A stretch of DNA of 64,000 nucleotides from Akkermansia muciniphila (GTDB taxonomy: Bacteria; Verrucomicrobiota; Kiritimatiellia; RFP12; JAAYNR01): the NCBI GenBank assembly GCA_945870025.1, contig CAMBQN010000004.1, forward strand, positions 65,017 to 129,016, given 5' to 3'. A program made the translations under genes and the position numbers. Under the pieces are notes generated by a model. The model was not told where the DNA came from, searched no databases, and worked only from the letters and a program-made list of their open reading frames with translations. Of this stretch, positions 3,014 to 32,001 are shown in pieces (position 1 is the first letter of the stretch; each line of letters begins with the position of its first letter).

Positions 3014-6000
3014 ATGCAGATACTTAAAGCGATTTTTGGGACCAAGAATCAGCGCGACGTGAAGCGGATGCGTCCGATGGTGGCTCGGATCAATGCGTGG
3101 GAACAGCAATATCAGGCGCTCTCGGATGTCGACCTGCGCGCCAAGACGGTGGAATTTCGGGAGCGGGTGAGGCTAGGCGAGACGCTCGACAGTCTCCTGT
3201 TCGAGGCCTTTGCTGTGGTGAAAAACGCCTGTCGCCGGTTGTGCGGCTCGCGTCGGATGGTGTGTGGCCACGAATTGCCGTGGGAAATGGTGCCGTTCGA
3301 CGTGCAGCTCATGGGCGGCATTGTGCTGCACGAGGGGAAGATTGCCGAAATGCAGACCGGCGAAGGCAAGACGCTGGTGGCGACCCTGCCGCTCTATCTC
3401 AACGCCCTCTCCGGCAAGAACGTGCATCTGGTGACGGTCAACGACTACCTCGCCCTGCGCGACTCGCAGTGGATGGGGGCCGTGCTGGAATTTCTCGGCC
3501 TGACGGTCGGATGTATCCAGAATGACATGTCGCCGACGCAGCGGCGGCAGCAGTACGCCTGCGATGTGACCTACGGCACCAACAGCGAATTTGGCTTTGA
3601 CTACTTGCGCGACAACGGCATGGCCATGGATCCGTCGCAGGTGGTGCAGAACGGCCATACGTTCGCCATCATCGACGAGGTGGACAGTATTCTGATTGAC
3701 GAAGCCCGGACGCCGCTGATCATTTCCGGCGTTGCCCAGCAGGCAGCCGCACACCAGTATGCCGAACTCAAGCCGCTGGTTGAGCGACTCTTCAAGCGGC
3801 AGCAGGAGCTGTGCAACCGTCTGATCGGCGAGGCCAAGCAGGCGCTGGATGCCAAGGATCAGGAAACGGCGATGTGGCGGCTCTTCCAGGTCTACCACGG
3901 CACGCCCAAGCACAAGCAGTTTCTCCACCTGCTGGAAGAGACGGCCGTGCGGAAGCTGCACGAGCAGGTGGAGAGCATGATGCTCACGGAGATGCGCAAG
4001 GAGCAGGCCCGCGATCTTCGGGAGGAGATGTTTTTCACGATCGACGAACGGACCCGCGAGGTCTCGCTGACCGACAAGGGGTGCGAGGCGATGAATCCGG
4101 ACGATCCGTCGATGTACCTGATGCCCGACCTGATCACCACGATGTCGGCGATCGAGGGCGACACGTCGATCAGCCCCGCCGAGCGGACCCTGCGCACGCA
4201 GACGGCGCGGTCCGATTTCATGGAGCGCAGTGAACGGGTCCGCAACGTCGACCAGCTTCTCCGCGCCTACAGCATCTACGAACGCGACGTGGACTACGTG
4301 GTTCAGGACAACCGGGTTCTGATCGTGGACGAGTTCACCGGCCGCATCCTGCCGGGCCGCCGCTGGAGCGACGGCCTCCACCAGGCGGTGGAGGCGAAAG
4401 AGGGCGTGCAGATCGAGCGCGAGACGCAAACCCTGGCGACCATCACGATTCAGAACTACTTCCGCCTCTACAAGAAGTTGGCGGGTATGACCGGCACCGC
4501 CGAAACGGAGGCGGGCGAGTTCTCGGATATATACAAGCTGGACGTCTCGGTGATTCCCACCAACCGTCCGATCCGCCGCGTCGACCAGAACGATCTGATC
4601 TTCAAGACCCAGCGCGAGAAGTTTAAGGCGGTCATTGAAGAGGTGTCCGAACGCCATCGCAACGGCCAGCCGGTGCTGCTCGGCACGGTGACGGTCGACA
4701 CGTCGGAGGTCATCAGCCGCATGTTGCGCATGGCCCACATCCCGCACAATGTGCTGAATGCGAAGAACCATGCGCGCGAGGCCGAGATCGTCGCGCTGGC
4801 GGGCCAGCCGGGAACCGTGACCATCGCCACGAACATGGCCGGCCGCGGCACCGACATCAAGCTCGGCCCCGGCGTGGTGTGGGCGCCCGAGTCGGTGGTC
4901 AAGTCGCAGCTCACGCTCGAAGAGAAACCGGCGGGCGAGGCTCGGACGCTGCGGGATCTGCTCAACGAGCGCCCCTGCGGACTCCACGTGATCGGCTCCG
5001 AGCGCCATGAATCGCGCCGCATCGACCGTCAGCTCCGCGGCCGGTGCGCCCGGCAGGGCGACCCCGGCTCGTCCCGGTTTTATATTTCGCTCGAAGACCA
5101 GCTCATGCGGTTGTTCGGCTCCGACCGCATTTCGGGGATCATGACCCGCCTCGGCATGCAGGAAGGCGAGGCACTCGAACACCGCTGGTTGAACCGCTCG
5201 GTCGAGACAGCGCAACGCCGCGTGGAGCAGCAGAACTTCTCCATCCGCAAACGGACGCTCGAATACGACGATGTGATGAACAAGCAGCGTTCGGTCATCT
5301 ACGAGCTGCGGGGTGAGGTGCTCTGCTCGGATTCGCCGCACGAAAAGATTCTGGACATCTTCAACGACTTGATCCTTTCCCAGTGCGAAGGCTTCCTCGA
5401 ATCGCGGAAGGTCAGTGAGTGCCGACCCGCTGAACTGGCCGAGGCGTTGATGACGGCGTTTCCGATCGCCGTGACCGCCGATGAGCTGGGGGCGTTTGCG
5501 GGCAAGCCGGAGGATGCCGCCCAACAAATATATTCGCGCGTGGCCGAGGCTTACGAGGTGAAGTGCGCGATGGAGCCGCCGGCATCGCTGGCGTTTCTGG
5601 AACGTCAGGTGGTGCTGAGCTGCATTGACCAGCAATGGCAGGAATATCTGCGGGCCATGGACGAACTGCGCCACGGGGTGAGCCTGCGCGCCTATGGCCA
5701 GCGCGATCCGCTGGTGGAGTACAAGCGCGAGGCGTTCAAGATGTTTGAAGAGCTGGTCGAGCACATCAAAACCGATGTCGCGCATACGGTCTTCCGCGCC
5801 ACGGCGTCGATTGACAATTTCGACCGTCTGATGCATGGCGGCGGCGTCCGTCGGCAGCAGACCATCCACCAGTCGGTCTCGCTTCTGGGGGCTGCCAACG
5901 CGGAGGACATCACCCCGTTTGACGACAACGCGCAGTCGTCAATGGCGGTTCCGGCCGGGGCGGCGGCCAATTTTGATGCGGCGCTCGATGCCATGGGCAA

Positions 6001-25439: not shown

Positions 25440-25505
25440 CAGTCGTCTGTGGTCGTAAAAAGTACCATACTCGACAGGGGTCTGCAAGCCAATCCCCCGA
25501 CAGCC

Positions 25506-25647
25506 CAGCAATTCTAATTATGACAGCCGCTATCGGGATCCAAATCGTGATCGGGACCGAAATCGACGAGAAAGCAAGGAATTCGACCCCGATAGCGATA
25601 GCGATTTCGATTTCGACTGTACGGATGTGCCATAATTAGAATTGCTG
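25506..25647. mobile_element. Family-B MITE-like element, copy B1 (142 bp), with 17-bp TIRs and a 9-bp flanking direct repeat
   Basis: TIRs are CAGCAATTCTAATTATG (25506-25522) and CATAATTAGAATTGCTG (25631-25647), a perfect inverted repeat. CCGACAGCC occurs immediately outside both ends (25497-25505 and 25648-25656). The interior holds CGAT-based hexamer arrays around a GGAATTC core. Confidence 0.85.
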
Positions 25648-25658
25648 CCGACAGCCAA

Positions 25659-27431
25659 TCACTTGCCCGCCATGCGAAAGTTGCCGAATCGCAGCTCGCC
25701 GCCAGCGGGCGCGTAGATCAACACGTTGAGCTTGCCAACCTCGGCGGGCAGGGGGAGTGTGTCGCGGTATTCCCAGGCGGTCAATGCGCTCTTGAAAGTC
25801 TTGTCGGCGCAGACGAAAAACGCGGTGTTTCGGCCGGGTTTGATGTAGAATGGCACCGTTTCAAAATAGCGCCCGCCCGCGTCGAGTCCGAGCGCCACTC
25901 GCGTGCCGCACGTGAGTCGGCTTTCCACGTCAACCAGCAGCGTGTCGCCCACGCGCAGCGTCAGCGCAGGCTCGCACAGCCGGCTAAACACCGTCTTTTC
26001 CTTGCTCCCAACCTGGAACCGCACCACAAGCCGCCCGTCGGCCTCAACGCCTTCCGCCGCATCGCCCCATTCCTCGCGAACCCATGTTGCCGTTTGACCG
26101 GCCCCACGGATAGGACGAGTCGGGCCCTCGGGCGGTCGCGCGTCGGACGGGTCGGACGCGCGGCGCATCCCGCCCGAGGCCTTGTCCACAAACGTCAAAT
26201 CAATCCCGCCGTGCTGACTGAGGAAGTACAAGATGAGGTTGACCCCCATCCGCGTCGCCCCTTCCTGCATCTCCGCCGGACTGAGGCTGGTAAGCGAGTC
26301 TTTCAGCGGCTGCGTGTGGGGATCGATGTTGAGGCCGTCACCATAATCGTTACGCGTGTAGATCACCGCGACACGTCCGTTGATCCGTATTCCCTCGATG
26401 TAGTCCTCACGGTATTTGTCGCCCGGCGGAATGGCATAGCCCTTGTAGCCGCGGGTCAGATCATAACCGGTGCGCCAGCCCTCAAAATCAGCGCCCAGCC
26501 GCTCGATGACCGCGTCCGGCAGAACCCGAGCGATTTCACGCCGGAAGGCCCGATCAAAGGTTTCATCGCGGTAGTGCGTCGAGTCATCGGCCCACAGGTG
26601 TCCGTTTTTCTGCAAATACTCGCGCAGGTTGCGCACTTCTGCGTCGGTGAAACGAAAATCATTATGACCGGTCAGATACACAAACGGAAGCCGTTTTAGT
26701 TCGGGTTGATCGAGCCGCACGACGGTGTCACCGGCCATCAGCGACATGCCGGTGCGCTCACGAAGTTGATGACTTAGAAACATCATCGCGGTCCGCGCGC
26801 AATCCCAGTCGCCGCCGTATTGCGCCAGGGCCAGCGTCGCCGAGACCGTGCCCGGACCGCTGCTGCCGCCCTTCAAGGCCAGATCGCCAGCCGTGCCGCT
26901 CTGTCGCCGCTGCGGCTGGCCGGTTCCCTTGGGCAGGGCGATACCGACGTTTCGCGCCGCATCCGGACGGTGTGCGTCGCCCACGGCCGCCACGCTTACC
27001 GCCGCCGCTGTCTTTCGCTGCGTCGCGCCACCCCCCGCATCCGACGCGCGGGCGACCGTTGCGGCTGTCGCTCCGCTCCCGGTCGACGTCGCGGCCGGTG
27101 CGGCACGGCGCTGCGCCCCGGCGGCCAGCGTGACCGTCTCCGCAACCACCGCAGCCGTTCCGGCTACCTGCCGCTCCGGCCCGAGGCTCTCCGGATGCGC
27201 CGCGTCGGGCGCCGCCCCACGTGCCGCGCCGCCCGACGCGACACGCGCCAGACCAACCGTCGCCGCCTCCGGCTGACGCGCATCGGCCCCGGCCGCCACA
27301 CCGCTCGCCGCCGACGTGCGATGCGCCGCGCCACCAGCCGCTTCCGACGCACGGGCGACCGTTGCGGCTGTCGCTCCGCTCCCGGTCGACGTCGCGGCCG
27401 GTGCGGTACGGCGCCGCGGCAGGTGCGGCAC
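25659..27431 (-). CDS. C-terminal portion of the split giant protein: Ala-rich ~100-aa repeats, DUF4159-like domain and a C-terminal beta domain
   Basis: DUF4159-like block LPFVYLTGHNDFRFTDAEVRNLREYLQKNGHLWADDS...VIYTRNDYGDG. The N-terminal 160 aa are the same repeat peptide encoded, in another frame, by the upstream ORF. The GTG start at 27431 is probably artefactual. Confidence 0.7.
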   Translation of the reverse strand: MPHLPRRRTAPAATSTGSGATAATVARASEAAGGAAHRTSAASGVAAGADARQPEAATVGLARVASGGAARGAAPDAAHPESLGPERQVAGTAAVVAETVTLAAGAQRRAAPAATSTGSGATAATVARASDAGGGATQRKTAAAVSVAAVGDAHRPDAARNVGIALPKGTGQPQRRQSGTAGDLALKGGSSGPGTVSATLALAQYGGDWDCARTAMMFLSHQLRERTGMSLMAGDTVVRLDQPELKRLPFVYLTGHNDFRFTDAEVRNLREYLQKNGHLWADDSTHYRDETFDRAFRREIARVLPDAVIERLGADFEGWRTGYDLTRGYKGYAIPPGDKYREDYIEGIRINGRVAVIYTRNDYGDGLNIDPHTQPLKDSLTSLSPAEMQEGATRMGVNLILYFLSQHGGIDLTFVDKASGGMRRASDPSDARPPEGPTRPIRGAGQTATWVREEWGDAAEGVEADGRLVVRFQVGSKEKTVFSRLCEPALTLRVGDTLLVDVESRLTCGTRVALGLDAGGRYFETVPFYIKPGRNTAFFVCADKTFKSALTAWEYRDTLPLPAEVGKLNVLIYAPAGGELRFGNFRMAGK

Positions 27432-30400
27432 GGCGCTGCGCCCCGGCCGCTAGCGTGACCGTCTCCGCAGCTACCGCAGTCGTACCGGCTACCTGTCGCT
27501 CCGGTCCGAGGCTTTCCGGTTGCGCCGCTTCGGGCGCCGCCCCACGTGTCGCACCGCCCGACGCGACACGCGCCAGCCCGACCGTCGCCGCCTCCGGCTG
27601 ACGCGCATCGGCCCCGGCCGCCACACCGCTCGCCGCCGACTTTCGCTGCGCCGCGCCACCCACCGCATCCGACGCGCGGGCGACCGTTGCGGCTGCCGCT
27701 CCGCTCCCGGTCGACGTCGCGGCCGGTGCGGCACGGCGCTGCGCCCCGGCGGCCAGCGTGACCGTCTCCGCAGCCACCGCAGCCGTTTCGGACGCCTGCC
27801 GCTCGGGTCCGAGGCTTTCCGGGTGCGCCGCTTCGGGCGCCGCGCCGCTCGGCGCGACACGGGCCAGCCCGACCGTCGCCGCCTCCGGCTGACGCGCATC
27901 GGCCCCGGCCGCTACATCGCTCGTCACCGACTTTCGTTGAGCCGCTTCGTCCTTTGCCATGGCCCGTTGCAGATCAACTGCACGTGCAGCATCCGCCCGC
28001 GCCACGCGTTCTGCATGTTTGGCCGACGCCTGCCGAAGTTCTTCCGGACTCGCCGCTGCGGTCGGTACCGGTTCACGTTCCGCTTCATCGGCCTTCCGTT
28101 CAATCGCATCGGGCATGCGCTCTCGCATCTTCGCCTCCATTGCCGCTACGGCGCTGGCGCTGAGGTCAGGTTGTGCGAGATCGGCTGCAGCGCGTGCCTC
28201 GGCCGCAGAAAGCGACTGCTCCGCCTTGGCCTGCTTGTCCAGTTCGGACGGCGTGTCCTTCACGGCAACAGCGCCAGCGGCTGGCGCCAGGGAGAAGCCC
28301 AGCTTCTCCTCGAGCGATCCGATCGTCACCGCCAAGGAGGGCGAGATTTGCTCCAAGGTCACCACCCGCGTCTGTAACAGCAGGTCGAGTGACAGCAGAA
28401 AGACGAGAACGTGCATGACCAGGCTTGCTGCAAAATATTTTGCGAGTCGGTTTTCTTCGCCTTGCGTCATCCGCCACAGCAGATAGAGGAGAATCAAAAG
28501 CAGGAGCAGAACCCCCGCAATCCGCCACGCATTATAGCTTCCGGCCGCGGCGGGGGTAACGGACGTCGGTTCGTCAACGGCGGCGGAGGGCACAACCTCC
28601 GAATTCGAAGCCGCCTCCGGTTCGGGTGGCGGCGTTTCGATTATCGGTTCGGGTTCAGGTTCAGGTTCAGGTTCCGGTGCGGTGACTACCGCCTGCTCCG
28701 GCTCGGGTGCGCGTTCAGGCTCTACAAGGACTTCGGCTTTGGGTTCCGGAACAACGACCCCTACAGTCCATGGAATCTCGACGGTGTTCCATCCCCAACT
28801 GATCGCCACCCGGCCGGTGAGTTGGGTGGTGGATCCGATTCCGGCGGTTCCTACCACGATCTGCCAGCGTGTGGTCTCGACCCCCAACGTCACGTCGCGA
28901 ACACCGTCGAAGCGGCCGTCAAACCCCAGTATCACCGCTTGCACGCGGCAGGCGCGGTCGGCAGCCTGCACGACGCCCCACACCGTTCCGGTCACCACCT
29001 GCCCCGGCGCGACAGGAGTCCACGACAGCTCCCTGGGTCCGATGACAATGGGCGGCGCACGGATGCGCACACAGACACTCACCTCGGCTCGTGGAAGCGT
29101 GCCGACGGTCACCACCACTCGTCCGGTGGACACGCTTGGGCGCGCGTCACGACCCGCTGTCACTGCCAGCCCCAGCTCGAGCTGCCGTCCTTCGGGGATG
29201 TTTTCGCCACTCGGCAACAGGGACACAAGCCCTGCGCTGAACCCTTGCACATCGGCGGTAAAGTGTCCGCGCCCCGCGATCACCACTCGTCCCGTCACCG
29301 TGCAACCGGGGTCAAGTTCCAAAACCAGCGGCTTAGGCTGCACCCAGAGCGCGTCCCGCCGCATCGGCGTCACGTGTTGATGCTGGACGGCGATGCGTTG
29401 AAAGGGAAGGCCGGCTTCGGTGACGCCCCGTGCCGTTGCCTGCCAGACCGACGGGCCTGGGCCAGCCGGAACGGCAAAACCCTCGAAATAACCGCGATCG
29501 GTTACGTCGAGTTTCTGTTGGGCGCCGCCCGTGCCGGTCGTCAGCGACACATCGCAGCCGCGTGTCATGGCCTCGCCGTCGCGCACGACCAGTGCCGCTA
29601 CCGCCTGAGGCACGGCATCGGTCACAACGCCTGTGGGCGGGAACAGCACGAGTTCCAGATCACTTTCGGCGGTCGCGGCCAGTGCGCCGAGGCCCGTGGC
29701 CCGCCACAGACCCCTTGCGGGCGCATACCGCTCGGCCATGGAATCGCTCGCGCGGGCCGTCCGCAACGCCACCGCCGCCCCGCCGTCCGGGAGTGTGATC
29801 ACGGCCTGGACATCCTCGTCAGCGGCCAGCGTCAGCGTCAGCAGGCGCACGCTGTCGTCCACCGGAACATCGGCATCGTCCGTCGTGAGATCCCAGGTGC
29901 CGATCGACACCGAGGGGTGGATGGCCAAAACGATTTCCTGAAAAATAGTCTCCAGACGGGTCATGTCGGGCGCAAATGAAAAAGTTCCGCCGGTATTCTG
30001 GGCAATGCGATCCAGGGTATTGCTGTCGGCCAACGTGGAGAGCCCGACGGTATAGACCGGGATACGCGAGGCCGTGAATCGGCGATGGGAATCTTCATAG
30101 CGACCCGGTTCGTCCCTGCCGTCCGACAGCACCACGACGATCTTGCGGGAGTCGGGGAGGGTGGCGAGGGTCTGGTCGGCCAAAATCAGCGCGGCGTCGA
30201 GATCGGTCGAGCCGCGCGCGACCAGACCTGCCATGGCCTGTTCGAACGTCCCCGTGTCAGCCGGCGGGGTAGGGGACAGGAGCAGGCGCGGCCGCCGTTC
30301 AAACGCGACCACTGAGAGGGTGCGCACGACGCCGCGGCTGGCGGCGATGCGCGCAAAGAGGGTCAGCGCGCTGACGCGCAGACGCGCGGGATCGGTCTTG

Positions 30401-30813
30401 CGCATGCTGAACGAGTCGTCAATGACCAGCGCCACGTCTATCCGGCTGGCGGCAGATTGCACGGCTTTTGTGAGGCGCAGTTCGCGCGTGCCGTTGGTTC
30501 CCTGGGCACACAGCACGAGATCCGACAGTCCCTGTGCGGCTGCGGGCCATCCGCCCACGTATATCTGCCAGCCACCGCCGATGGGCCGGGCCAGTACGCG
30601 GCGCACGTCACCCGATCCGGAAGGTCCTTCCACGCGCGCCGAAAACGCAGTGGATCCGGGCGCCTCGTCGGCACCGAGGGACACAAAACCGTAATGGCCG
30701 TGGGACTCGAACGTCGCGGCGCGGACGGCGGCGGCAGACCACAGACAGGCACACAGCAACGCACGACCGGTGAGCCGTGCCAACCGCCCCGTTGTCCGCT
30801 GTTCCGTCGCCAC
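26758..30813 (-). CDS. N-terminal portion of the split giant protein: signal peptide, vWA (MIDAS), beta-rich region, (EP)n linker, 2 TM helices, TolA-like helical region, Ala-rich repeats. The last ~225 codons are out of frame
   Basis: vWA motifs VALVIDDSFSM, GSTDLDAAL, VVVLSDGRD. Linker PEPEPEPEPEPIIETPPPEPE. TM helices AWRIAGVLLLLLILLYLLW and YFAASLVMHVLVFLLSLDLLL. After ~aa 1124 (nt ~27443) the translation becomes Arg/Gly-rich junk (APYRTGRDVDRERSDS...) while the repeat peptide continues in the frame of ORF 25659..27431. Confidence 0.75.
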   Translation of the reverse strand: MATEQRTTGRLARLTGRALLCACLWSAAAVRAATFESHGHYGFVSLGADEAPGSTAFSARVEGPSGSGDVRRVLARPIGGGWQIYVGGWPAAAQGLSDLVLCAQGTNGTRELRLTKAVQSAASRIDVALVIDDSFSMRKTDPARLRVSALTLFARIAASRGVVRTLSVVAFERRPRLLLSPTPPADTGTFEQAMAGLVARGSTDLDAALILADQTLATLPDSRKIVVVLSDGRDEPGRYEDSHRRFTASRIPVYTVGLSTLADSNTLDRIAQNTGGTFSFAPDMTRLETIFQEIVLAIHPSVSIGTWDLTTDDADVPVDDSVRLLTLTLAADEDVQAVITLPDGGAAVALRTARASDSMAERYAPARGLWRATGLGALAATAESDLELVLFPPTGVVTDAVPQAVAALVVRDGEAMTRGCDVSLTTGTGGAQQKLDVTDRGYFEGFAVPAGPGPSVWQATARGVTEAGLPFQRIAVQHQHVTPMRRDALWVQPKPLVLELDPGCTVTGRVVIAGRGHFTADVQGFSAGLVSLLPSGENIPEGRQLELGLAVTAGRDARPSVSTGRVVVTVGTLPRAEVSVCVRIRAPPIVIGPRELSWTPVAPGQVVTGTVWGVVQAADRACRVQAVILGFDGRFDGVRDVTLGVETTRWQIVVGTAGIGSTTQLTGRVAISWGWNTVEIPWTVGVVVPEPKAEVLVEPERAPEPEQAVVTAPEPEPEPEPEPIIETPPPEPEAASNSEVVPSAAVDEPTSVTPAAAGSYNAWRIAGVLLLLLILLYLLWRMTQGEENRLAKYFAASLVMHVLVFLLSLDLLLQTRVVTLEQISPSLAVTIGSLEEKLGFSLAPAAGAVAVKDTPSELDKQAKAEQSLSAAEARAAADLAQPDLSASAVAAMEAKMRERMPDAIERKADEAEREPVPTAAASPEELRQASAKHAERVARADAARAVDLQRAMAKDEAAQRKSVTSDVAAGADARQPEAATVGLARVAPSGAAPEAAHPESLGPERQASETAAVAAETVTLAAGAQRRAAPAATSTGSGAAAATVARASDAVGGAAQRKSAASGVAAGADARQPEAATVGLARVASGGATRGAAPEAAQPESLGPERQVAGTTAVAAETVTLAAGAQRRAAPAAAPYRTGRDVDRERSDSRNGRPCVGSGWWRGASHVGGERCGGRGRCASAGGGDGWSGACRVGRRGTWGGARRGASGEPRAGAAGSRNGCGGCGDGHAGRRGAAPCRTGRDVDRERSDSRNGRPRVGCGGWRDAAKDSGGGKRGGRGRRTPSGCGAKRRYRPAQGNRPAAAATERHGWRSGLEGRQQRSGHGLGDAGPGAIRRRLGLRADRDDVSKSSTS
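26936..27936 (-). repeat. Coding tandem repeat, ~303-bp unit, ~3.2 copies, nearly identical at the DNA level
   Basis: The string GCGACCGTTGCGGCTG(T/C)CGCTCCGCTCCCGGTCGACGTCGCGGCCGGTGCGG recurs near 27051, 27353 and 27680. The encoded peptide is ...AAPAATSTGSGA(T/A)AATVARAS...GADARQPEAATVGLARVA...ESLGPERQ...AETVTLAAGAQRR. Confidence 0.9.
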
Positions 30814-30851: not shown

Positions 30852-31265
30852 CTACTCATCCGTCTGAAACGTCGCCACGGACACCTGCGTGATCTTCGCC
30901 TTTTCGCAGGCGTTAAGCACCTTCACAAAATCGGTATGCCGGGACCGCTTGTCGCAGCGGATCACCACCGAGACACTCCCGTGCTGGCGTTGCGCTTCGA
31001 CAAAGAGTCCGTCGAGCTGTTCGATGGTCAGCATCCGCTGGTTCACCACGATTGCGCCCGCTTCGGAGACGTTGACGACGAGCAGATCGGGCAGTTTGGC
31101 CCGTTCTCCCCCCTCGGTCGCGGGGGCCAGTCGGATGGTGATGTCCTTTTCGGCCTCATAGAAGGTCGTCGCCACGAGAAAGAAGATCAGCAGGAGGAAC
31201 ACGATGTCGATCAACGGCGCAATGCGAACGCCGCTTCCCTCGTCATCCTGGCATAATGCGCGCAT
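30852..31265 (-). CDS. exbD: Biopolymer transport protein ExbD/TolR
   Basis: 137 aa. IAPLIDIVFLLLIFFLVATTF TM helix followed by the periplasmic ExbD fold pattern (ITIRLAP..., VVIRCDKRSRHTDFVKVLNACEKA). Confidence 0.85.
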   Translation of the reverse strand: MRALCQDDEGSGVRIAPLIDIVFLLLIFFLVATTFYEAEKDITIRLAPATEGGERAKLPDLLVVNVSEAGAIVVNQRMLTIEQLDGLFVEAQRQHGSVSVVIRCDKRSRHTDFVKVLNACEKAKITQVSVATFQTDE

Positions 31266-31278
31266 GTCGTACCCCCGG

Positions 31279-32001
31279 TTACCGCTTCAGGCCCTTGCGC
31301 ATGGCCGCCACGATTTCGAGCGCGGCGTCCTCCATTTCGCGCAACAGGTTATCGGCGCGGATGCGGAAGATATGGTAAACGATGACGGACGGGACGGCGA
31401 CAGCCATGCCGAATGCCGTAGTGAGGAGCGCCTCACTGATCCCCTCGGCCAGCAGCTCGGTCCGTCCGAGGGCGTTGGACTTGGCCACCACGTCAAAAGC
31501 CTTGATCATGCCGGTCACGGTGCCCATCAGTCCGAGGAGCGGCGCGACATCGGCCACGATGGCCAGCGGCTTGCAATTGCTGCGCAGGTTGTAGAGGACG
31601 CGGCCGCCCTCCTCCTCGAGTCCGGCCTCCATCTCGAATCCGTCTGCCTCGGCCCGCGCCAGACCGCCGCCCACGAGCCGCGCAAACTCCGATCGTCCGG
31701 TCCGGCAGACCTCCCGAGCCTCATCCAAACGTCCCTCGCGGGCCAGACCGAGGAGCCGTTCATGGAGCTTGGCCGGAAAAATTCGGCTGTGGCGCAATCC
31801 GATCCACCGCTCAAAGATGAACGCCACCATCACCACCGAGCACAGCAGGATCGGCCACATCAGGGGACCGCCCCGATCAAACAAGTCCTCGAGGCTCTGA
31901 CCGGTGTTCGGCGTTGTCGCAGCCCCCTGTGCCCAAGCCGCTCCAGCTACCAGCACTCCGGCAGCCGCCGCCCATACCGCTTTGATTCTCACCTGTGCCA
32001 T
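31279..32001 (-). CDS. exbB: MotA/TolQ/ExbB proton-channel protein with N-terminal signal peptide
   Basis: LMWPILLCSVVMVAFIFERW and the conserved C-terminal LGLMGTVTGMIKAF...EALLTTAFGMAVAVPSVIVYH. Start moved to MAQVRIKAVWAAAAGVLVAGAAWAQG (ATG 32001). The longer track ORF (to 32250) merely translates repeat element B2. Confidence 0.85.
   Translation of the reverse strand: MAQVRIKAVWAAAAGVLVAGAAWAQGAATTPNTGQSLEDLFDRGGPLMWPILLCSVVMVAFIFERWIGLRHSRIFPAKLHERLLGLAREGRLDEAREVCRTGRSEFARLVGGGLARAEADGFEMEAGLEEEGGRVLYNLRSNCKPLAIVADVAPLLGLMGTVTGMIKAFDVVAKSNALGRTELLAEGISEALLTTAFGMAVAVPSVIVYHIFRIRADNLLREMEDAALEIVAAMRKGLKR

Follow-up and report, generated by a model that had tools for sequence, protein, structure and literature searches.

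A probable recent 22-nucleotide frame break in the coding repeats of a giant vWA/DUF4159 gene from a freshwater Kiritimatiellia genome

The 64,000-nucleotide (nt) stretch analysed in this study (the window; assembly GCA_945870025.1, contig CAMBQN010000004.1, positions 65,017 to 129,016) belongs to a freshwater Kiritimatiellia bin from a short-read metagenome (2.76 Mb, 59 contigs, 81% complete). On its minus strand it carries a giant gene with vWA and DUF4159 domains, which is present as two overlapping open reading frames (ORFs) where the frame breaks. ORF1 (30813..26758, minus strand) encodes 1351 amino acids (aa) and contains the VWA domain. Its N-terminal 1133 codons (27415..30813) are authentic and hold, at their distal end, the first unit and half of the middle unit of a three-unit coding repeat array, and its remaining 218 codons (26758..27414; residues 1134-1351) form an out-of-frame, Arg/Gly-rich tail that ends in a TGA at 26758-26760. 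ORF2 (25659..27431, minus strand) encodes 590 aa from a GTG, in a frame that is open from 27449, and contains the remainder of the middle unit, the third unit, the DUF4159 domain (26220-26834) and a C-terminal domain of approximately 185 aa. In the source assembly, gene calling recovered no more of this frame than 25659-26747 (362 aa), and with that start DUF4159 lacks 29 residues. Directly upstream of the giant gene, at a distance of 38 nt, lie exbD (30852-31265) and exbB (31279-32001), both on the minus strand and both intact.

The intact protein consists, in order, of a signal-like N-terminus, the vWA domain, a large middle region, a PEPE linker, two transmembrane (TM) helices, a charged Ala-rich linker containing the repeats, DUF4159 and the C-terminal domain. 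With Pfam domain calls judged against the gathering score, the vWA domain (29938-30438, ORF1 residues 126-292; families PF00092/PF13519) scored 48.4 bits for VWA_2 (cut-off 27) and 47 bits for VWA (cut-off 23.8), and DUF4159 (PF13709; ORF2 residues 200-404) scored 135.6 bits (cut-off 25.9) over positions 2-202 of the 202-position profile. The nearest solved relative of the latter is an uncharacterised protein, PDB 4i66 (E 1.5e-13); a literature search for DUF4159 gave only the Pfam paper, and the NCBIfam search gave no hits. The two TM helices (28375-28521, ORF1 residues ~765-813) are both encoded in ORF1, while ORF2 contains no hydrophobic segment, with a maximum 19-residue Kyte-Doolittle value of 1.23 over the first 230 aa. 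The vWA/middle part and the DUF4159/C-terminal part would, under standard topology rules, both face away from the cytoplasm.

The frame breaks within a coding tandem array of three units (26982..27900, minus strand) that encodes an Ala-rich module of approximately 100 aa. The units are R1 (27900-27610, 291 nt), the middle unit (27609-27285, 303+22 nt, or 325 nt in all) and R3 (27284-26982, 303 nt), and the array is reported by Tandem Repeats Finder (TRF) as one gapped consensus with a period of 325 and 2.7 copies. The three units are 88-92% identical to one another (mean column identity ~88%) and share no exact run longer than 76 nt; a preliminary description of the window, made from the sequence alone, was therefore correct in recognising a tandem repeat but went too far in calling it near-identical. 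The repeat anchor GTCGACGTCGCGGCC occurs at 27082, 27385 and 27710, and is followed by GGTGCGGCACGGCGCTGCGCCCC in array copies 1 and 3, while the middle copy contains the 22 extra bases that the preliminary description had quoted as an imperfect tandem duplication. On the coding strand, the normal unit reads ...GCGCAGCGCCGTGCCGCACCGGCCGCGACGTCGACC..., whereas the middle unit reads ...GCGCA, GCGCCGTGCCGCACCTGCCGCG, GCGCCGTACCGCACCGGCCGCG, ACGTCGACC.... The gene-proximal 22-mer GCGCCGTGCCGCACCTGCCGCG (27415..27436, minus strand) is still in the frame of ORF1 and contains a private T at 27421 (CCG->CCT, synonymous); from the gene-distal 22-mer GCGCCGTACCGCACCGGCCGCG (27393..27414, minus strand) onward the true peptide is in the frame of ORF2, and this copy contains a private A at 27407 (GCC->ACC). 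Each 22-mer is thus one base off the consensus of the other units. In this register (27393-27414 versus 27415-27436) the pair matches at 20/22 positions, compared to 18/22 in the register originally proposed (27400-27421 versus 27422-27443), so that the duplication itself stands and only its placement shifts; TRF likewise places a repeat at 27393-27440, with a period of 22, 2.2 copies and 88% matches. No microhomology is present at the junction, which separates positions 27414 and 27415.

Since 22 is not a multiple of 3, the insert changes the frame by +1, and the authentic peptide (APAATSTGSG...) picks up again in the frame of ORF2. The ORFs and the Pfam domains on either side confirm the earlier proposal that the true peptide moves from ORF 26758..30813 to ORF 25659..27431, and the Arg/Gly-rich nonsense tail was also described correctly, apart from its length (~225 codons as estimated, 218 as counted). 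Without the 22 nt, the window would encode a protein of 1710 aa, which corresponds to the 1704-aa allele of close relatives plus six additional linker codons.

The state of this gene in other genomes is uniform. Near relatives were found through a protein-cluster look-up, which yielded seven contigs from seven samples and two pipelines with 96-98% nt identity to the window within the gene. All seven (100%) contain a single ORF with VWA and DUF4159 in the gene order exbB-exbD-giant gene: two encode 1795 aa with four in-frame units (L023 and L024), four encode 1704 aa with three in-frame units (L031, L032, L034 and L035), and one encodes 1603 aa with two in-frame units (L033). Seven distant orthologues are likewise single ORFs with VWA and DUF4159, with lengths of 1601 aa (G002, of the same genus), 2323 aa (G001), 1805 aa (G006), 1867 aa (G010), 2087 aa (G012), 1603 aa (G021) and 1981 aa (G037). 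Shorter orthologue frames all trace to assembly limits, with contigs of G004 and G003 ending inside the array, those of G005 and G014 cut by contig ends, and G027 containing a run of Ns in the gene. The 22-nt insert is absent from approximately 20 other units, comprising R1 and R3 of the window and the units of eight related loci, and the partial arrays of G004 and G003 cover the equivalent position without it; a difference this consistent is far outside what chance would produce. The orthologue comparison therefore bears out the view of the preliminary description that this giant gene is normally single. An indel not divisible by 3 relative to the homologous units, together with orthologues that have one continuous ORF over both parts (1601-2323 aa), is what is expected of a gene disrupted by a frameshift. 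A natural division into two genes, which had been listed as a possible cause, is rejected on these comparisons because all readable orthologues and the seven near relatives are single ORFs and ORF2 has no export signal of its own.

Relatives that are 96-98% identical differ in array size, with two, three or four copies of the Ala-rich ~100-aa module, and as many as seven occur in the genus. Changes in unit number always involve whole in-frame units, all periods in the orthologous arrays are multiples of 3 with 0% indels (for example, 294 nt x 7.1 in L016 and 321 nt x 4.3 in L029), and no array was detected in G002, G006 or G010. The occurrence of two, three or four units among sequences with 96-98% identity shows that the length of the linker can change freely by whole units. 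The array is broken or contains Ns in three related bins (at the end of G004:C444 and the start of G004 JBIJDW010000228, at the end of G003:C9, and in an N-run in G027:C24), and their annotations will consequently show partial genes. One further related contig, L036 (ENA ERZ28008908 k141_2148548), contains a GAA->TAA stop at gene position 3574, in the third repeat unit and 82 nt from the contig end; the sequence then diverges for approximately 40 nt at the tip of the contig, and this second premature stop in the array is probably tip noise.

Neither part of the gene shows signs of decay. Branch dN/dS (the ratio of nonsynonymous to synonymous substitution rates), calculated from Nei-Gojobori distances and three-point branch lengths, was ~0.24 for the N-terminal part and ~0.12 for the C-terminal part on the branch leading to this genome, and the sister branch gave the same values. 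With L023 as the baseline for indels (G004:C444 was set aside, as it is syntenic over ~7 kb only), the only remaining indels in coding DNA are of 12 and 6 nt, in the PEPE linker, and indels not divisible by 3 occur, the insert apart, only between genes. The signs of an old pseudogene, namely dN/dS approaching 1 and further frame-breaking indels or stops, were thus not found in either half. If the break is real, it would be recent, because neither half shows relaxed selection.

The most probable explanation, to which we assign a probability of roughly 60%, is that a real rearrangement took place recently, in this lineage alone, within the repeat linker of what is normally a single ORF of ~1700 aa. 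The window lies within a contig of 135,100 nt, and the same sequence is present, without Ns, as the raw MEGAHIT contig k141_1884913 of ENA assembly ERZ27280308. (The raw contig measures 135,092 nt. By ~88.7 kb the two already differ by the full 8 nt, and the 10-kb locus is identical.) The 22- and 30-mers across the junction occur only once in the genome and contain both private bases as well as the junction, and no donor for the 22 nt was found elsewhere in the genome within 3 mismatches. The junction k-mers must have been in the reads because both private bases and the junction cannot come from walking between in-register units, and the insert would probably be present in the DNA of the cells. 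In addition, reads are long enough to tell the array units apart, two sister samples gave an in-frame three-unit array with the same pipeline, and the locus shows no signature of an assembly artefact in the form of a junction built from k-mers shared between copies, a scaffold join or Ns.

Several observations weigh against this explanation. The collections yielded no further independent assembly of this strain: a metagenome-contig scan with a gapped pattern able to match the site whether or not the 22 nt are present gave no match, and neither did a scan with a conserved 32-mer, an exact look-up of the 590-aa ORF2, or a search of 5.8 billion proteins with a 176-aa query that covered the junction together with the frameshifted tail. 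The array is a known trouble spot, as seen from the contig ends of G004 and G003, the N-run of G027 and the L036 stop close to a contig end. The two 22-mers differ at 2/22 positions, which is awkward for a recent simple duplication. Finally, the nine variants private to the middle unit (27553, 27549, 27520, 27496, 27472, 27451, 27421, 27407 and 27321, minus strand) have an unusual spectrum, with eight of the nine (89%) being G->A/T on the coding strand compared to 16 of the 58 private changes (28%) outside the repeats in the same gene (p ~2e-4), and a one-strand spectrum of this kind could point to damaged or erroneous reads. The same nine variants also have a second property, in that five are synonymous and seven (78%) fall at codon position 3, counted in the frame that is correct for each side of the junction. 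This excess (p ~0.014 relative to the distribution of G sites) agrees with the 55% observed for ordinary substitutions. The G->A/T spectrum looks like damage or error on one strand, while the codon-position-3 pattern looks like sequence that has been filtered by selection, and the two signals point in different directions.

Two minor observations concern the same units. R1 and R3 of the window contain no private variants, although the remainder of the gene has a private divergence of 1.4%, at which ~8 would be expected in these two units. They are 98-99% identical to the first and last units of L023, and may thus have been homogenised or recently exchanged between strains. A diversity-generating retroelement was considered as the source of the A-rich private variants and was dropped, as the other units share the same G in place of random bases; no reverse-transcriptase gene was noticed among the neighbouring genes, although no search aimed at one was made.

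The strongest alternative is a fault of assembly or consensus, with the gene in fact intact and containing three or four in-frame units. A few damaged or otherwise aberrant reads could produce such a fault, as could a mixed population in which iterative de Bruijn assembly carried a minority haplotype through the repeat, and the private G->A/T changes may perhaps have entered the contig in the same way. The fragmented, incomplete nature of this short-read bin is compatible with it, as are the breaks and Ns in the array of the three related bins, the noisy end and G->T nonsense change of L036, which was assembled by a similar pipeline, and the confinement of the strand-coordinated spectrum to the middle unit, with R1 and R3 free of it. 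The lack of relaxed selection in either half and the intact state of all near relatives would also be expected of a gene that is not broken. However, a de Bruijn assembler outputs only k-mers that are in the reads, and those at the junction have no source in the in-register units or elsewhere in the genome. The site is also mid-contig in 135 kb, far from the tips, read errors would not place seven of nine changes at codon position 3 with five of them synonymous, and the array was assembled cleanly by the same pipeline in the sister samples. An artefact is accordingly considered unlikely, though a good deal less so than the alternatives below. The preliminary description had left a recent inactivating mutation and an assembly error side by side; the indirect evidence available from the assembled sequences leans towards a real mutation.

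It is improbable that the split is a functional arrangement, in which the halves act as separate proteins or the 22-nt repeat serves as a reversible ON/OFF switch whose frame is restored when slippage removes one copy. In favour of such an arrangement, the gene encodes an envelope protein whose unit number varies among close relatives (2/3/4), both halves still look selected, and two direct 22-mers could in principle recombine. However, neither the split nor the 22 nt occurs in any relative examined, and the gene contains only two imperfect copies of the 22-mer, not a simple-sequence tract. As a separate protein, ORF2 would have neither a signal peptide nor a TM segment, its GTG is preceded by just a weak G-rich stretch, and translation from the gene caller's start would leave DUF4159 29 residues short. 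The suggestion that the mutation resembles phase variation is therefore without support: simple-sequence contingency loci resemble this gene in being envelope protein genes with a repeat-associated frame change, but here a 22-nt unit occurs twice in place of a multi-copy tract of 1-7 nt or a homopolymer, the site is invariant in relatives, and the ~303-nt array varies in whole in-frame units only. Another parallel is phcA of Ralstonia solanacearum, a reversible tandem-duplication switch with a 64-bp duplication. As in phcA, a short coding tandem duplication here would abolish function and could be reversed if exactly one copy were lost; unlike phcA, the copies are imperfect, and a single assembly offers no evidence of reversion or population heterogeneity.

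Programmed recoding, by which a +1 ribosomal frameshift or transcriptional slippage would restore the full-length protein, is very improbable, since, although both frames are open across the site and a +1 shift within ~40 nt would give a nearly normal protein, the zone 27452-27340 contains no slippery heptamer, no homopolymer of at least 5 and no in-frame stop, its sole rare codon is one CTA at the start of the zone, and the feature is conserved in no relative, conservation being the hallmark of programmed sites.

In kind, the break is an ordinary gene-breaking indel in a coding repeat and is not a phase-variation tract, a recoding site or a natural split. It resembles ordinary pseudogenisation by out-of-frame duplication or indel in that the insert is not a multiple of 3 relative to both the paralogous units and the orthologues, homology goes on in a second frame, and a nonsense tail follows. 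It departs from the typical case in that the copies are imperfect (20/22), the break lies where the two sides of the unit diverge differently, and neither half yet shows decay. The imperfect copies and the position of the break at this change in divergence raise the possibility of an out-of-register join in place of replication slippage.

Two origins of the junction fit the array equally well, namely a 22-nt tandem duplication, or a join of two neighbouring ~303-nt units 22 nt out of register. The latter would involve a net change of -281 nt (also +1) and would turn a four-unit allele like that of L023 into the observed array. With such a join, the two differences between the 22-mers would have pre-existed between the parent units, and it may therefore be more parsimonious than a duplication plus two point changes. 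Comparison of the middle unit with other units is suggestive of a hybrid, as its part 3' of the junction matches R3 of L023 with 2/108 mismatches (or 4/125), while its part 5' of the junction is 8-10% from every unit and differs at 14-18/178 positions from all full-length units (all but the R1 units). The test of the 5' part versus the 3' part gave Fisher values of 0.03-0.05, and the informative sites before the junction are mosaic. A more elaborate proposal, which is doubtful, is that the junction is the scar of one complex repair event that left a microhomology-free join, a loss of 281 nt and a strand-coordinated G->A/T cluster in the ~230 nt around it. If true, such an event would be a bacterial counterpart of the clustered single-strand mutagenesis known from eukaryotic rearrangement breakpoints, and the broken gene would have been sampled before selection had time to eliminate it or let it decay.

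If the genuine rearrangement favoured above is correct, its consequences can be outlined from the predicted layout of the protein. Either the 22-nt duplication or the out-of-register join would produce the +1 frame change in the giant gene, and a protein translated from the normal start would retain the vWA domain, the membrane hairpin and a portion of the linker before ending in 218 nonsense residues. In the intact protein, the hairpin and the long linker would hold DUF4159 and the C-terminal domain on the outer side of the cytoplasmic membrane; after the break, these two parts would be either unmade or made without an export signal. The distal module would thus be lost or mislocalised, as in an ordinary inactivating mutation, and the strain would be a natural mutant without the distal DUF4159 module. 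If the break is an artefact, it instead calls for caution regarding coding repeats in short-read bins. In either case, both ORFs should be annotated as one disrupted gene of ~1710 aa rather than as two genes, one for vWA and another for DUF4159, and the function of this exbB-exbD-linked giant envelope protein should be inferred from the intact 1603-1795-aa alleles of close relatives.

The linkage to exbB-exbD and a conserved S-x-x-x-H helix make the gene itself more interesting than its break. The giant gene follows exbB-exbD in all loci, and in the window exbB, exbD, lemA and a TPM gene are intact and equal in length to those of relatives. S-x-x-x-H is the motif of TonB/TolA anchor helices. 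The second TM helix contains it at ~28411-28425 (ORF1 residues ~797-801; AASLVMHVL in the window), and it is kept in this helix in six orthologues. The corresponding orthologue sequences include AASLVMHIL, AASLVVHLL, AASVALHLL, VGSVAAHAL and VLSVLLHLA, at identities down to 58% (L015, L016, L019, L029 and L030). Compared to the TolA/TonB-type transducers that pair with ExbB-ExbD/TolQ-TolR, the giant protein shares a gene adjoining exbB-exbD, an S-x-x-x-H helix, a long charged Ala-rich linker and a distal globular module. It differs in its size (~1700 aa), in having a vWA domain at its N-terminus, across a TM hairpin from the linker, and in that its distal module is DUF4159 and not a TonB or TolA C-terminal domain; no Pfam match to a TonB/TolA domain was found in the giant protein. 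Among the relatives, which are named Kiritimatiellia, one bin of the same genus comes from Lake Mendota. Relative to L023, the window also contains a 166-nt insert (~25495-25660) that begins right after the stop of the giant gene, and synteny with L023 ends shortly beyond it.

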